A DNA stretch of 64,000 bases, from positions 32,001 to 96,000 of IMG/VR virus record IMGVR_UViG_3300037312_000330, one strand, 5' to 3'. Of this stretch, positions 6,987 to 51,957 are shown piece by piece (within the stretch, counting starts at the first letter, position 1; the number at the start of each line of letters is the position of its first letter). The translations under genes and the position numbers were made by a program. The DNA is from a virus. Lineage: Duplodnaviria > Caudoviricetes. The notes beneath the pieces are model-generated. The model ran no database searches, was not told the DNA's origin, and saw only the letters and a list, made by a program, of their open reading frames with translations.

Positions 6987-9872
6987 TTATGGCAGATTAC
7001 GCGCCGCTGTGACAACAGCACGAGCAGACGCAGACACCTGCTGATAGCCAGAGTTCACGTCGTTGCGCGAATTGACAACGAAGTGGACTTTGTCTGTATT
7101 GCCAGTTGTTCCTACTGCCAGACTAAGTGTCATATTGCTAGCCAGAATAGAGCCAACTTCATCAGCTTCGAAGTAGATGATGTTGACAACTCCGGCAACA
7201 TTCTTCAAAGCAGCACGGAAGGACCACTGCTTGCACCCAGACGGATAGTTGACTACTACCTCACCACTCATCAGCCACGCTTCGCCGTTCGGCACAACCA
7301 TGCGGTTCGTGTTGCTCAGAGCCTGACCATCTGTGGTCAGGGCCAGCGTCGCGCCGTTCCCGTAAGTGCCAGTGGCAATCTCGAAGTTGATACCGGGTTT
7401 GCCGCTGACGTTCGTTGTCGAGTTCGGTTTGTAGACTACGTTGCTCTGTGCTGGCGGTGTGAAATTTGTCACCCCTGCCATGTGAACGTACTTGCCGCCA
7501 CTGATTGTCACCGTATCGGAGCCAACCACAGTCACGTGATCAGATCCGTTGTTTACCGTAATTCCGTTAGAACCTTCTACAACTGTGTTCGTAGCACTGA
7601 GCGTTACGTTCGAGCTTCCATTTACGGCACAGTAGCTGTTGTCTGAATAGATGCTCTTGGAGGCTACGATCATTGTGAACGAACCGTAAACTGAACAGAG
7701 CTGAGAGCTGTGTATCAGATTGAACGACGGCGTCGTTGTGCTCGTTGCCCATGTGGGTGTCTTAACCAGAGAACGATCAGAGTTCTCGATAGTGCAGAAC
7801 TGCGGAACCCACGTGGATTGTGAGTCATCTGGAATAATGACGTTCGAGTATCCACCAAGGATGTTGCAATAGGTTGCCGCAACTCGGTTAGTCACACCGC
7901 CAAAGATGGTAGAGTAGTTACCACCACATAGGTTGTACGCACCACCGACCGCAGCACCTGTCTGTCCAGAAGCAGAGTTCTGGAAGCCGATAGTCGTTGC
8001 ACCGAAGCCGCTACGGAAGATCCGGTTGTTATTGGTTGGGGTATCGAAGTAGTTCAGGTACACTGTCGCATCGTTCACTGCGCCGGTTCCACCCGAGTGC
8101 GTATGGCGATAGAACGTTGTAGACAGAGTCGGAATCGAGTCGAACAGGTTAGTGTTCGTCAGCGTTATGCTCTGGCTGTTTCCTCCGGCATTAGTCGAGA
8201 AGATCAGTCCATAACCATTGAGCGTCAGACTGGCAATCGTACTGCTTCCAAGTGCTGTATTCAGTTGCGAGTTGAATGCAGCCATCAACGAGCTGTATGT
8301 CTGTGCAGCAGAACCAAGAATGGCGATGCTGAAACTGATCCCATTGACAGTTCCGGCACAGGTATACGATGTCGTATTGTTCGCAAGACCTGTTGCTGAT
8401 CCAGCAGAAGGACCATCCCGCAGCGGAACCAGAATGAAAGCTGGTGCATCCCACGCTACTGTTGTTCCAGTCAGCGATCCATTCCAGAGCTTGACTCCAC
8501 CACTCGGTGTTGTCGCTAGAGGCGAACTGACCAGAGTAGCAGTTGGGCCTTGCAGCGTCCCTACAGGATCAAACATTGGCACAAAGTTCGGCAGCGAGTT
8601 TGTCCCACCGTTTGCCACGAACTTGAGCGACATATTTCCATTGAACGGAGGCTGATCGTCTACCGTTGCCAGGAAGTCCCATGTGCCAACTCCAGTACGC
8701 ACAATTGCGAACGTGCCTGTTCCAGTCGTGAACGTCAGCATATTAGCTGGAACGATCGTGTTCCCGCCAGCTACCTGGATAGTAGGTGCGCTGTTGATGT
8801 ACCGGAACATGATCATGCCACCAACAGGGAACGTGCTGAATCCTGTATCGTTGACCGTGATCGTTGGTGTCGCGTGTGTCAGTTGGATGTATGCATCATC
8901 ATCCGCATCCAACGTGGTATACGTGCTGGCAGAAATCTGCTTGAAGGTCTTGAACTTCGGAAACGATACACGATCGTGTTCCGCTTGCGTCAGGTGATAC
9001 TGTTCGCTAGTTCCGTTTCCACCCTGAACGCCAGCCAGCGAGCTGTGAGAACCAGTGAAGCTAGATCCGGTAACCGGACCAAGGATCACATATTGATCAC
9101 CAATTGCTGGAAGAGACAGCAGAGTAGTTCCCCACTGGACTGTTCCGTTAGTGATGTTAGATAGTCTGCGGCAGATGCCACGTTGAGAACCGCTAGTGAA
9201 CTGGATCACCAGATCGGCCGCTACACCGTTGTATCCGGTGGCTGTGACTTCAGCAGCCGAAGCACCGCCAGAACTGATACCTGTGAGCGATCCAGAGAAC
9301 CAGACTCTCGGTTTGGCGCTCAACGACCAACGACCGCTGGTATCCGAATACGCAAGGTACGCAGAATTGTAGTCGCCGTCACCGTAGATAACATAGGCGT
9401 TGTTCGTGTCGAACGCCGGCGGAATCAGCAGGTCTACCGTCTGGATGCGCGGAAAGAAATTCCGTGTGGCGCTAGAGCTGAACTGCCAGCTAACCAAAGC
9501 CAGTGTCGAGGCAGTATCCAAGAACAGATCGAAGCGATAATCTGGACCACCTGTGACGCTCGCTTTGGTGATCAGATTTGTCGCTACGCCTACACCCAGA
9601 AGAGTTGCTCCGTTATAGAGAGCTACTTCGCCAAACTGGAACTGAGCGACAGAATTCGCTACGATGGTTGTGACACGCATCGTGTTGGCATCCACAGCGA
9701 CCGGATTGGCCGTCAGTGTACTGCCAGAGTAGACTACGCTGCCTTGGAGTCCAGTCGGGTTAGACGCCAGTGTATAGTTGGAACCAGAGCCGAAATCGAT
9801 TCTGGTCACAACGGACAGCAGTGCGTTCGCAGTGAAATACGAACGACCAGCAGTTGTGAGCTGGAATAGCAT
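6987..9872 (-). CDS. Long tail fibre protein
   Basis: 961 aa; tail-collar-like N-terminus (QLTTAG...FGEVALY); Gly/Ser/Thr-rich GG repeats. Confidence 0.8.
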   Translation of the reverse strand: MLFQLTTAGRSYFTANALLSVVTRIDFGSGSNYTLASNPTGLQGSVVYSGSTLTANPVAVDANTMRVTTIVANSVAQFQFGEVALYNGATLLGVGVATNLITKASVTGGPDYRFDLFLDTASTLALVSWQFSSSATRNFFPRIQTVDLLIPPAFDTNNAYVIYGDGDYNSAYLAYSDTSGRWSLSAKPRVWFSGSLTGISSGGASAAEVTATGYNGVAADLVIQFTSGSQRGICRRLSNITNGTVQWGTTLLSLPAIGDQYVILGPVTGSSFTGSHSSLAGVQGGNGTSEQYHLTQAEHDRVSFPKFKTFKQISASTYTTLDADDDAYIQLTHATPTITVNDTGFSTFPVGGMIMFRYINSAPTIQVAGGNTIVPANMLTFTTGTGTFAIVRTGVGTWDFLATVDDQPPFNGNMSLKFVANGGTNSLPNFVPMFDPVGTLQGPTATLVSSPLATTPSGGVKLWNGSLTGTTVAWDAPAFILVPLRDGPSAGSATGLANNTTSYTCAGTVNGISFSIAILGSAAQTYSSLMAAFNSQLNTALGSSTIASLTLNGYGLIFSTNAGGNSQSITLTNTNLFDSIPTLSTTFYRHTHSGGTGAVNDATVYLNYFDTPTNNNRIFRSGFGATTIGFQNSASGQTGAAVGGAYNLCGGNYSTIFGGVTNRVAATYCNILGGYSNVIIPDDSQSTWVPQFCTIENSDRSLVKTPTWATSTTTPSFNLIHSSQLCSVYGSFTMIVASKSIYSDNSYCAVNGSSNVTLSATNTVVEGSNGITVNNGSDHVTVVGSDTVTISGGKYVHMAGVTNFTPPAQSNVVYKPNSTTNVSGKPGINFEIATGTYGNGATLALTTDGQALSNTNRMVVPNGEAWLMSGEVVVNYPSGCKQWSFRAALKNVAGVVNIIYFEADEVGSILASNMTLSLAVGTTGNTDKVHFVVNSRNDVNSGYQQVSASARAVVTAARNLP

Positions 9873-33356: not shown

Positions 33357-33364
33357 TGTAAATA
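33357..33364 (+). promoter_or_regulatory. TGTAAATA candidate phage promoter
   Basis: Recurs at 36668, 46573, 48236 and 50587, upstream of + strand units; resembles T4 late TATAAATA. Confidence 0.45.
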
Positions 33365-49859: not shown

Positions 49860-50483
49860 TTAGGCAGCGTGGAAGGCCAGCGCTCCACCAATCTGTAGCC
49901 ACTTGCCAGCCGCAGTGTAGATGAACATCGTTGCGCCAACTTGGTTCGCTGTTCCAGCACCGTTAGCACCGGCCAGCGAGAAGTTAGAACCCCAAGTGAT
50001 TGTCCGACTGCCGGTTCCGTCCTGTGTGAACGTGAACACAAGGATCTTACCAACTGCGGCCTTCGTCGGATTCGCCACAGTGATGTTGCCGGTCAACGTT
50101 CCCACCGAGATGTGCGTCACAGCGTCACTAGCCGCTGGGGTGATCGTCGCCGCATACGCGATCGGAGTGCTGGACGGAGGAGCCAGACGACCACCAGCCG
50201 AGTTGTCAGAAATCGGCACCACGGCGTCGTCTTGAGCGATGACGAATCCGCCAGCACTCTTGACAGTGACGCGGAACGTGCTGTTGCCAGCACGGACGTA
50301 GCAATCGACTTGACCGTCGGAGTCCAGAGCGATAGCATTGCCTGTCAGTTGCTGCGTACCAGCAGCGTCAGCGTACAGACGCACCTTGTTGTTGGAACCT
50401 GTTTCCGTGATGTAGGCGGTTCCGACAGCAGGAGCGCCATTCACGGTAAAGCGACGTGTCAGTCGCAGAACTGGATAGCCCAT
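49860..50483 (-). CDS. Isolated virion-like (fibre/decoration) protein
   Basis: LYADAAG..LDSDG N-terminal domain; FTQDGTGSRTITW motif. Confidence 0.65.
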   Translation of the reverse strand: MGYPVLRLTRRFTVNGAPAVGTAYITETGSNNKVRLYADAAGTQQLTGNAIALDSDGQVDCYVRAGNSTFRVTVKSAGGFVIAQDDAVVPISDNSAGGRLAPPSSTPIAYAATITPAASDAVTHISVGTLTGNITVANPTKAAVGKILVFTFTQDGTGSRTITWGSNFSLAGANGAGTANQVGATMFIYTAAGKWLQIGGALAFHAA

Positions 50484-50759
50484 TGTGTGTTTTCCTATAG
50501 GATGGTTGATAAAGCAAGAGCGACTTGCATAATCAAACTAGCATGTGCCAGTATGAGAATAAATGGAACAAGGAACACCAACGAACTGTAAATAGGCAGC
50601 ACAACCAACGTCAAATAATGCAGCCGGAATCCGGATATCTCCGGATTTCCATTGGGGCACCTACGAAACAATGCATCCTAGTCTGTAGATATCTGGTTGA
50701 TAACCAGTGCAGTGCGATGAACAGAGTTCGTCAATCCTAAGATCTACAATAGGCGTAAC

Positions 50760-51216
50760 GATGCAACCGAAAGGCGTATAAACCACGGGTAAGCGTGAAC
50801 TTACTCGTGAGGGTGAATCGCGTCAAATTCGGCGAAAGACAAACACTGGACGAGTGCCACCGCAGCCGCGTACCACTATGACTCCTTTATGTCCAACGCC
50901 GAGCCAAACACAGTGACAGGTGACTAATCATCACTATCCACCGTACTGCACGGTGGTATCGCCTTGAAAGCGTTTTGTCATGTGGAGGTGTAGAGACTTG
51001 ACGGCGCGCTCCTAAATCAGCACTCACCTCCTGGATTAGATCCCAGGAACTCCAAGCGACATTCGATCTGTGTGGCGCATAGCCTCGTACGATCGGTTTC
51101 TCTTGGGTTAAAAAGGTGTGGCATTTATCGCTATATGCTGACATGGAGAAGACAAAGTCCAACGGTGGCTATACACATCACCTCCGGGTGCATGATGCTA
51201 CCGAGCTTCCTTAGCG
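50760..51216 (+). ncRNA. Group I intron-like ribozyme in intergenic DNA (ends approximate)
   Basis: P AAATTCGGCGAA (50825), Q AACGCCGAGCC (50895), R GGTGTAGAGACTT (50987), S GAAGACAAAGTCC (51148); P2-P9 helices can be formed. Confidence 0.8.
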
Positions 51217-51267
51217 TAAACAACCATCGCCGGTCTGACCGGCATATCTTCGAAAAGGAAATAAATC

Positions 51268-51957
51268 ATGCCGAGCAGCAAAGAAGAGAAGCCGAATCCC
51301 ACTCGGGAGCTGGCCCTGTCCCGTATCGCAGTGGTAGTCAGCAAGTACAAGATCATCAAACTCTCCGTGCTTATTCAGGACGTCGTGAAGCACACGTTCG
51401 GCGATACCGCGAACAAGGATTCTGAGAAGGCAGATCGCGCCCACAAGCTGATTGCTGGTCTGATCAACTCGCTTGTGGAAGACGGCACTGTCGGACAGTT
51501 CAACTTCTCGCGCACGTTGAAGCACGATGGTTCTGACCGCCCGAGCACTATCACAGAGACGATCATCGTAGAAGGTGGTTTCAGTCTCAACGGATATGTC
51601 CCGGAAACGCCTGTAGTTGTCGATTCCGACACGCAAGAGCACAATGAAGAAGGCGATGATGACGACGGAGAGCTGTTCTCTTCGATCGACGAAGATGACT
51701 TTCTCGAAATCCTCGAGAAGCGCACAAGTGGTTTTGCAATCATCAATTACAAGGGAAATAACTCCGAACGAGAGCTCTATGTCAAGAGCACCCCTAACGA
51801 GGCGCTCGGAAAGTATCTGAACCTGATTGGAGAGGACGGCAACTCGCCGGATGTCTTCGCTCTGGTTCCGGTAGAACTCGAGATCAAGTCTATGCTTGGC
51901 AAGCCTGTGGAAGTCAAGGAAACCGAAGGTGATGTGCCGGAAGTCGCCGCAGGGTGA
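51268..51957 (+). CDS. Hypothetical acidic protein
   Basis: 229 aa, RBS AAGGAA. Confidence 0.8.
   Translation: MPSSKEEKPNPTRELALSRIAVVVSKYKIIKLSVLIQDVVKHTFGDTANKDSEKADRAHKLIAGLINSLVEDGTVGQFNFSRTLKHDGSDRPSTITETIIVEGGFSLNGYVPETPVVVDSDTQEHNEEGDDDDGELFSSIDEDDFLEILEKRTSGFAIINYKGNNSERELYVKSTPNEALGKYLNLIGEDGNSPDVFALVPVELEIKSMLGKPVEVKETEGDVPEVAAG

Follow-up and report, generated by a model that had tools for sequence, protein, structure and literature searches.

Nearly all known group I ribozymes are, to our knowledge, introns. The allosteric ribozyme of Clostridioides difficile and the lariat-capping ribozyme GIR1 are the two accepted exceptions, and both changed ideas of what group I RNAs can do. 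Here we describe an RNA element from a 64-kb stretch of phage DNA (the window; bases 32001–96000 of the 248,884-bp IMG/VR phage record IMGVR_UViG_3300037312_000330, with all positions given in window numbering). Judged by its sequence, the element (50626–51215, + strand) is a group I ribozyme of about 590 nt and of the IC3, or tRNA-intron, type. It interrupts no recognisable gene and stands in front of a gene for a 229-aa protein that starts at 51268 (gene 51268). No description of such an element was found in a literature search.

The most similar described RNAs are the IC3 introns in the anticodon loops of tRNA-Leu(UAA) and tRNA-Arg(CCG), of the Azoarcus and Anabaena type. Examples compared here (L068 from a Burkholderiales genome, and L048, L043 and L046 from viral contigs) have cores nearly identical to that of the element in J3/4-P4, J5/4-P4′-P6, J6/7-P7-P3′ and J8/7-P7′. 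The helix order, a GAAA loop, a P8 with CCUAAA...CAUGG, the succession guide-CAC(C)-P2 and a G 2–3 nt after P9 are also common to both. In contrast, the element is three times longer (~590 versus ~200 nt), and its P2, P5, P6 and P8 are branched. Its guide is GGGG instead of GAG, it has no tRNA exons or upstream 5′ splice site, it lies before a protein gene, and the Rfam model RF00028 does not detect it.

In C. difficile, a c-di-GMP-II (cyclic di-GMP) riboswitch and a group I ribozyme lie in a 5′ untranslated region (UTR), and the ribozyme reaction, according to the available summary, decides whether the ribosome-binding site is usable (Lee et al. 2010, summarised in PMC3984707). As in the system so summarised, the phage element would be located in an mRNA leader and not inside a gene. 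The tail of the phage element is complementary to a Shine-Dalgarno sequence that follows 40 nt after it, and this complementarity is conserved. The element differs in having no detected aptamer (no riboswitch family matched 50400–51400 in Rfam at E ≤ 10), in its intron subgroup and in its phage setting; two exons are doubtful for it, and its regulatory outcome is something we infer. GIR1 of twin-ribozyme introns, as covered in PMC2219692, is derived from group I, lacks a normal P1 and lies directly upstream of an open reading frame (ORF). It creates the 5′ end of the downstream mRNA, and its activity needs pairing of the 5′ and 3′ flanks, with an alternative 3′ hairpin (PMC2219692). This flank pairing versus 3′ hairpin, as described in that article, is comparable to the GGGG/CCUU pairing versus the tail hairpin of the phage element. 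However, the element has no Rfam GIR1 match, its core is IC3-like, and an ordinary P7 and P3-P8 are intact. GIR1, again as that article presents it, is eukaryotic and nested in another intron, and its branching chemistry is not indicated for the element. The GOLLD and ROOL RNAs are likewise longer than 500 nt, highly structured, phage-borne and located near tRNA arrays. The element has no sequence or model similarity to them, and its ribozyme core is recognisable, whereas such a core is lacking in GOLLD and ROOL.

Relationship to tRNA introns

The element was compared with group I introns by a covariance model, R1, built solely from four Rfam- or ARAGORN-supported group I introns in tRNA genes of other phages, which were taken from among the contigs with the R block described below. 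In the window, R1 gives a single match at 50760–51056 (51.1 bits; E about 2e-12, a rough value), and it also matches all eight homologues described below and a metagenomic relative, L050. The alignment covers P3 to P8, with conserved block D aligned to P3/P4. Hand mapping gives the canonical helix order P3-P4-P5-P6-P7-P3′-P8-P7′-P9 with the P3/P7 pseudoknot. The initial annotation had called a free-standing group I core here, and the helix order, the R1 match and the invariance of the core in nine homologues agree with that call. The helices that it named (P3, P4, P7, P9 and ‘P2’) are all present, none of them displaced by more than 1 nt from its stated position. Two points are revised. The structured RNA begins about 135 nt further 5′ than was thought, at ~50626, and the helix labelled P2 (50784–93/50800–09) exists but is better named P2.1.

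The Rfam models for group I introns, GIR1, GOLLD, ROOL and riboswitches gave no match at the gathering score, or at E ≤ 10 on 50400–51400, and RF00028 also did not match the homologues L034 and L035. The same model does score related introns with small or single insertions (L048, 54 bits; L050, 30 bits). The very large insertions in P2, P5, P6 and P8 are the likely reason for the miss, which is not read as absence because the custom covariance model does match. The earlier proposal to take a lack of cmscan hits as a refutation is therefore misleading: Rfam gives none, yet R1, built from tRNA introns, finds the core.

A 19-nt R block of the element recurs exactly in six viral contigs of IMG/VR. 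Five of the six sites are within tRNA-Leu(UAA) or tRNA-Arg(CCG) genes (ARAGORN with introns), and three are scored by Rfam as Intron_gpI with 45–54 bits, only L048 being above the 50-bit gathering score. Over 22 nt, the P block is identical to that of the tRNA-Leu(UAA) intron of a Burkholderiales metagenome-assembled genome (L068; CANNRR010000025.1, 5346–5660, − strand). This is a chromosomal tRNA-Leu(UAA) gene with a 222-nt IC3 intron, which R1 scores at 121 bits. Reciprocal nhmmer and covariance-model matches were also obtained between the element and tRNA introns. The R1 match and the exact 19-nt and 22-nt identities indicate that the core belongs to the IC3 tRNA-intron lineage, and on these comparisons its closest conventional relative is the Burkholderiales tRNA-Leu(UAA) intron. 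The element appears to descend from an intron of the tRNA-Leu(UAA) type by loss of the tRNA exons and gain of large branched P2, P5, P6 and P8. The likeness hints that the phage ribozyme was captured from a tRNA intron of a Burkholderiales-type host, and it hints likewise at the host clade of the phage.

The guanosine-binding P7 consists of G50993-C51160, the bulged A50994 and G50995-C51159, and it is invariant in the nine homologues. We take G50995/C51159 to be the G-site pair by analogy with the Tetrahymena and Azoarcus introns.

Conservation and architecture in nine phage loci

Homologues of the element were found in eight other phage contigs, in the corresponding gap, which separates a phiTE_241_C-like gene from a gene for a 212–229-aa protein. 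These contigs are from Logan, ENA, JGI and NCBI assemblies and were reached via homologues of both flanking proteins, the phiTE_241_C-like gene serving to retrieve six of the nine loci. The gap between the same two gene families is 754–883 nt in every homologue contig. A hidden Markov model of the gap matches all of them, which together with the window gives nine distinct aligned sequences. The downstream gene family lies directly 3′ of the element and in the same orientation wherever the contig covers that flank. The element is single-copy in the genome.

Among the nine sequences, 77 of 80 positions are invariant in the core blocks D–G (P3/P4, P4′/P6, P7/P3′ and P7′, corresponding to the classical P, Q, R and S). 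In contrast, the downstream protein is only 32–52% identical and the tail-fibre-like neighbour protein 48–87%. Length and sequence vary freely between the core blocks, and the peripheral helices P2, P2.1, P5, P6, P8 and P9 covary, as found by segment-wise folding and anchored stem searches. P9 (51163–51203, + strand; CGGUGGC 51163–69 with GCUACCG 51197–203, and an inner hairpin) is a covarying stem of 4–8 bp, which follows AGUCCA(A/C) directly in all nine sequences and differs in sequence among them. Its three alignable pairs have 4–5 double changes each, and none is broken. When P9 and the tail hairpin were taken together, 95% of cells were paired compared with 65% in shuffles, no shuffle out of 500 reached 95%, and the pairing collapsed once the partners were slid.

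These data bear on two explanations that do without a working ribozyme. Helices of 5–6 bp such as P3, P4 and P7 can arise randomly, and with Rfam unmatched, the region might be an ordinary divergent promoter region with a chance likeness to group I motifs. The probability of this is negligible: the R1 match (E about 2e-12) is unique in 64 kb, 19–22 nt are identical with tRNA introns, and eight homologues covary. A chance resemblance was rejected on the R1 match, the covariation of P9 and the tail, and that of helices X and Y of the P2 domain. The failure of the Rfam model and the atypical P1 arrangement would also fit a relic without catalytic activity that survives only as a spacer or as a 5′ UTR structure with a regulatory or protein-binding role. 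We consider a relic very improbable, since the active-site positions (J4/5, J6/7, P7 with its bulged A, and J8/7) are invariant while helices elsewhere drift and compensate. Invariance at these positions argues for selection on catalysis and not on mere structure. The invariant active-site core, the compensating helices, the fixed locus and orientation and the absence of a mobility gene together argue for a functional, domesticated RNA and against a selfish intron or a relic. The RNA is thus probably functional and catalytic, and this descendant of tRNA introns, which stands before one conserved gene, has probably acquired a new role.

All parts of the element are on the + strand. At its 5′ end, hairpin hp0 (50626–50649) lies just 5′ of the guide-like sequence and corresponds to the P1-loop hairpin of L050. 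A stem of differing sequence is present at the equivalent place in most homologues (only 4 bp in L057 by automated scan), and the own-versus-cross partner control for it is weak. The guide-like GGGG (50654–57) and the J1/2-like CACC (together 50654–50661) are invariant in eight of nine sequences, L059 having UGGG. The branched P2 domain (50662–50778) is a three-way junction of helices W, X and Y, with a second three-way junction inserted within X. Helix W (UACG 50662–65/CGUA 50775–78) has an extra pair on both strands in L050 (UACCG/CGGUA). Helix X (UGCAUC 50672–77/GAUGCA 50760–65) covaries at one pair with AU:5 GC:5 and at another with CG:9 AU:1, as does the mini-hairpin Y (CC-GAAA-GG, 50767–74; CG:8 UA:2). 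The closing stem of the inserted junction (50684–90/50742–48) differs in sequence in all homologues. By alignment, W and Y together are equivalent to the P2 with GAAA loop of L050 and the tRNA-Leu introns, and this loop presumably docks into a receptor in P8, as we assume by analogy with IC3 introns. The P2.1 hairpin (50784–50809) is formed by CACGGGUAAG (50784–93) and CUUACUCGUG (50800–09). An equivalent hairpin is present in all nine homologues, where it is 29–175 nt long and variable in sequence, and own partners give longer stems than swapped partners.

Block D (50811–50834) includes J2/3 GGGUGAAU, the P3 5′ strand CGCGUC (50819–24), J3/4 AAAU and the P4 5′ strand UCGGCG (50829–34), and all of its 24 positions are invariant. 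The P5 domain (50835–50896) has J4/5 AAAG, a covarying stem (GGA/UCC, replaced by GAGG/CCUC or UGGAC/GUCCA in homologues) and the mini-hairpin CGC-AGCC-GCG (50860–50870). The mini-hairpin is identical in P5 of five of nine homologues and is found again in L057, within the loop of P2.1, perhaps as a common module for tertiary contacts or protein binding. Block E and the three-way P6 extension occupy 50893–50992. Block E, with J5/4 CAA, the P4 3′ strand CGCCGA (50897–902) and P6 GC, is invariant at 17 of 18 positions, and the P6 closing stem near 50913–20/50974–81 covaries (GUGACA/UGUCA, GUAUCG/CGAUAC, GAAGA/UCUUC). Block F (50984–51008; 24 of 25 invariant) contains J6/7, the P7 5′ strand G(A)GACUU (50993–99) and the P3 3′ strand GAC(G)GCG (51000–06), in which one G is bulged. 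The last P7 pair is U-A in the window and A-U in L050 and L068, a compensatory change. In the P8 domain (51009–51148), a base stem (CUCC 51009–12/GGAG 51145–48) is followed by a second stem (51017–22/51136–41) and a branched extension. The base is compensated to UUCC/GGAA in other homologues, and the second stem alternates between CAGC/GCUG and CGAC/GUCG. The P8 base also carries a receptor-like CCUAAA...CAUGG motif, which we take, again by IC3 analogy, to be the receptor of the GAAA loop. Block G (51149–51161; 12 of 13 invariant) comprises J8/7 and the P7 3′ strand AAGUCC (51155–60).

An intron-less allele, which the initial annotation had proposed to look for in related phages, was not seen among the nine loci compared. 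The gap and the surrounding 6 kb matched nothing in GenBank phages by blastn and megablast, and a search of IMG/VR for related loci with either flanking protein found nothing. Several candidates were rejected. The 32 DUF7873 loci, including that of Ralstonia phage phiRSL1, have neither synteny with nor similarity to the gap. Exact-pattern matches in L049 and L051 (P block) and in L065–L067 (P2 pattern) are chance or coding and have no nhmmer or covariance-model support, and contig P0016 is a different phage module without ribozyme. On five phiRSL1-like genomes R1 gave only two weak matches, which are not homologues of the exon-less element, and phiRSL1 itself was unmatched. These two matches, in two phiRSL1-like jumbo phage contigs (L063, ~1500–1600, − strand, 21 bits; L064, ~1500–1630, 18 bits), look on inspection like conventional group I introns, one with an HNH-type ORF after it.

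Missing exons and the leader of gene 51268

The gap, estimated initially at ~780 bp, is 784 bp long (50484–51267) and non-coding by codon score; all ORFs within it have negative codon-usage scores, and both flanking genes are clearly positive. The earlier statement that the element has no visible host gene is borne out. A search with ARAGORN, allowing introns of up to 900 nt, gave no split tRNA for the window, L034 or L035. Splicing would restore no ORF from the sequence on the two sides, and an in-frame TAA (51217–19) precedes the ATG at 51268. Among the gap ORFs of the window there is no endonuclease ORF within the element.

Sequence GGGG-CAC(C) at 50654–61 occupies the aligned position of GAG-CAC(C) in L050 and in the tRNA-Leu(UAA) introns L048, L043, L047 and L068. 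We regard it as guide-like, a putative homologue of the internal guide and J1/2 of tRNA-Leu introns. CUU, which is able to pair with GAG, is the exon end of the ARAGORN-confirmed tRNA-Leu introns L048, L043 and L068 and, judged from sequence, of L050. Upstream of the guide of the element, neither a conserved pyrimidine-U (YYU) 5′ splice site nor a covarying P1 was found across the nine homologues. The claim that there is no clean P1 or internal guide is thus right for the missing 5′ exon partner and wrong for the guide, which has a recognisable candidate. The sole invariant tract complementary to the guide is CCUU at 51209–12, 3′ of the core.

The candidate terminal guanosine (omega-G) is 51205 (+ strand). 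Each of the nine homologues has a G 2–3 nt beyond the 3′ strand of P9, and the spliced G of tRNA-Leu introns is 3 nt beyond the P9-equivalent stem. The sequence after the conserved G is near-invariant, (A/C)UUCCUUAA. It belongs to a tail hairpin, GCU-UCCUU-AGC (51205–51215, + strand), which includes UUCCUU (51207–12) and whose stem covaries (GAUU/AAUC, AGUU/AACU, GAUC/GAUC and GCU/AGC). Tail CCUU can pair with guide GGGG in all nine homologues, with U51212 opposite the first G. Because this geometry is the same as that of CUU/GAG in tRNA-Leu introns, the tail looks like a copy of a ligated-exon target site. UUCCUU is also complementary to the Shine-Dalgarno sequence (AAGGAA or GAGGAA) 40–50 nt further 3′. 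This duplex (−3.7 to −7.8 kcal/mol) is the strongest of three partners tested in six of nine homologues, although duplex energies overall do not discriminate between the guide, J2/3 and the Shine-Dalgarno as the partner of the tail.

Upstream of the ribozyme, the TGTAAATA motif pointed out initially is at 50587–50594 (+ strand), and its distribution in the genome is promoter-like. Of its 16 copies in the 249-kb genome, ten lie between genes, and all 16 point in the same direction as the local genes, which makes TGTAAATA a plausible phage promoter. Its sites include window positions 33357, 36668, 46573, 48236 and 50587, besides 11 further ones in the genome, and it is often extended to CTGTAAATAG. 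We take TGTAAATA to resemble the T4 late TATAAATA, and the promoter role is assigned because of this likeness. It is likely a phage-specific, T4-late-like promoter consensus, and transcription of the ribozyme likely starts a few nt 3′ of 50587–94. A sigma-70-like promoter at 50506–33 was dropped, as it is not conserved among homologues. A purine tract, AAGGA(A/G), is present upstream of the promoter-like motif at 50570–50575 and at aligned sites in L034, L053, L054 and L057, and it is complementary to the UUCCUU tail. Terminator prediction called no + strand terminator between the ribozyme and ATG 51268. A GC-rich hairpin between the tail and the ribosome-binding site (51229–51243, + strand) is present with changed sequences in all nine homologues, and a clear U-tract after it was seen only in L052.

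From these features we propose, with middling confidence, that the element is a ribozyme which has been domesticated to process, in cis, the leader of gene 51268. Transcription would start from TGTAAATA, and the ribozyme would form the 5′ leader of the 229-aa gene. Still catalytic, it would act in cis at its own 3′ boundary, with the conserved G 51205 in the G-site. Alternatively or additionally, the guide GGGG (50654–57) would pair with tail CCUU (51209–12), U51212 forming a U·G wobble. The leader would then be severed between 51205 and 51213, by guanosine-dependent transesterification or by hydrolysis. With the anti-Shine-Dalgarno UUCCUU thereby removed from the mRNA, the reaction would govern how gene 51268 is translated or how stable its message is. 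The constant placement before one gene family and the anti-Shine-Dalgarno tail make leader processing in cis the most economical function, and position, orientation and tail together favour a control of gene 51268. The chemistry could be guide-tail cleavage, hydrolysis at G51205, or splicing from an unrecognised 5′ site.

A more specific version, which we put forward only tentatively, is a rewired ribozyme. Its substrate helix would consist of the 5′ GGGG guide and a target mimic, UUCCUU|AA, 3′ of its own core, and attack by guanosine triphosphate (GTP) would free the 51268 mRNA with a new 5′ guanosine and the anti-Shine-Dalgarno stripped. Otherwise the freed ribozyme would cut or recombine host or phage RNAs with YCCU|A.

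Several observations weigh against processing of the leader in cis. The covarying stem of the tail hairpin includes the conserved G 51205, an unusual location if this is a free omega-G. The guide-tail and tail-Shine-Dalgarno pairings have no covariation support, because their strands are nearly invariant, and a second G-run in J2/3 (50811–14) pairs with the tail about equally well. We know of no natural precedent for a P1 substrate 3′ of the core. TGTAAATA is kept at the aligned position only in the four closest homologues. The 51229–43 hairpin is terminator-like in L052, and the RNA of some members might stop before the gene. Finally, a run search found no RNA run containing the element sequence, its matches being DNA only.

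The core, the guide-like sequence and the omega-G-like G are also what would be expected of a conventional self-splicing intron in a 5′ UTR or small non-coding RNA with unrecognised exons, which would splice from an upstream YYU site to G51205 and be otherwise neutral. That its lineage includes exon-bearing forms is shown by L050, where a tRNA-Leu-like 5′ half (CUU) precedes the GAG guide. Nevertheless, we judge this explanation unlikely. A conserved pyrimidine-U site upstream of the guide was not found in the nine homologues, ARAGORN with introns finds no tRNA, and there is no endonuclease gene and no intron-less allele. Moreover, nine diverged phages all have the element at a single fixed locus, and an invariant tail and large added domains are not expected if it is neutral.

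L050 itself (OGCI01045118.1, 470–1042, from a metagenome) is a related intron 3′ of the same CTGTAAATAG motif. Its 5′ half of a tRNA-Leu-like sequence ends in CUU and is followed by the GAG guide, the same branched P2 and a ~120-nt P5 insertion. After its 3′ end, GGUAAG, a T-arm is present and a normal tRNA is not completed. Brute-force exon joins, tried on L050 only, gave only poor cloverleaves for a 3′ exon. By its sequence, L050 may be a transitional or degenerate form.

The element could also be a stable stand-alone RNA acting in trans, either a GGGG-guided ribozyme on YCCU|A RNAs (a tRNA anticodon loop, or pyrimidine-rich mRNA or rRNA) or a structural RNA like GOLLD and ROOL. Its missing 5′ exon, large size and ornate conserved peripheral domains would agree with this, as would the terminator-like hairpin of L052 after the tail, the array of 14 tRNAs 3 kb downstream, the Tpt1 gene beside the locus in relatives and the ROOL RNAs in comparable tRNA-rich regions of other phages. 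However, the element is strictly linked to the same downstream gene at a distance of 45–70 nt, and the U-tract is missing in most members. Rfam GOLLD and ROOL do not match, and a partner for the guide is already available in cis in the conserved tail. A stand-alone RNA therefore seems improbable to us, and processing of the gene 51268 leader in cis is the reading we retain.

Neighbouring genes and significance

The divergent neighbour and locus marker is the phiTE_241_C-like (tail-fibre-like) gene at 49860–50483 (− strand), whose homologues match PF26209. Downstream, the Shine-Dalgarno AAGGAA (51255–60) and the 229-aa gene with ATG 51268 (51268–51957, positive coding score) occupy 51255–51957 on the + strand. 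Homologues of the 229-aa protein are 51–54% identical by BLASTP and 32–52% by global alignment. No Pfam or PHROG family was found for the protein, its Atlas matches are below meaningful scores, and structural comparison gives weak winged-helix-like hints at most. The 14-tRNA array (Rfam scan) begins 3 kb downstream of the element. The DUF7873 protein of the window is 54% identical to its phiRSL1 counterpart. Only two sequencing runs contain the stretch, both of DNA and both from rhizosphere metagenomes.

Between the divergent gene start and the ribozyme, a hairpin, GCAAGAGCGACTTGC then TCAAACTA (50514–50540), is kept in all nine gaps with some compensating changes and occurs nowhere else in the genome. 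Possible roles are those of an operator or of a 5′ UTR for the gene at 49860–50483 (−). In more distant members of the locus, a gene for the RNA 2′-phosphotransferase Tpt1/KptA (PF01885) adjoins the phiTE_241_C-like gene (L053 1691–2314, L054 3618–4247, L057 3668–4354 and L059 3657–4337). Tpt1 is absent from the genome of the window. A sub-threshold match to YrlA, a Y RNA-like family, was seen in L034 directly 3′ of the DUF7873 gene (8633–8756; 33.7 bits, cut-off 69). Full-length ROOL RNAs are located in tRNA-rich regions of L043 (3148–3722, 323 bits) and L048 (4991–5605, 296 bits), unrelated viral contigs that both also have tRNA-Leu group I introns; they were detected with the same Rfam tool that gave no ROOL match in the window.

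If GTP attack at the tail is true, the element would be a GTP-dependent, protein-free switch of mRNA processing and translation in a phage, and in either rewired version it would be the first natural group I ribozyme that acts as an endonuclease and not as an intron. The system is compact enough for direct tests with a single transcript, GTP and a reporter of gene 51268. An exon-less ribozyme of the tRNA-intron type, tripled in length, with an invariant active site and kept at one locus in a family of soil jumbo phages with at least nine diverged members, speaks for a new function under selection. That such a large conserved ribozyme is invisible to the Rfam model suggests that exon-less derivatives of group I introns may be under-counted in phage genomes.

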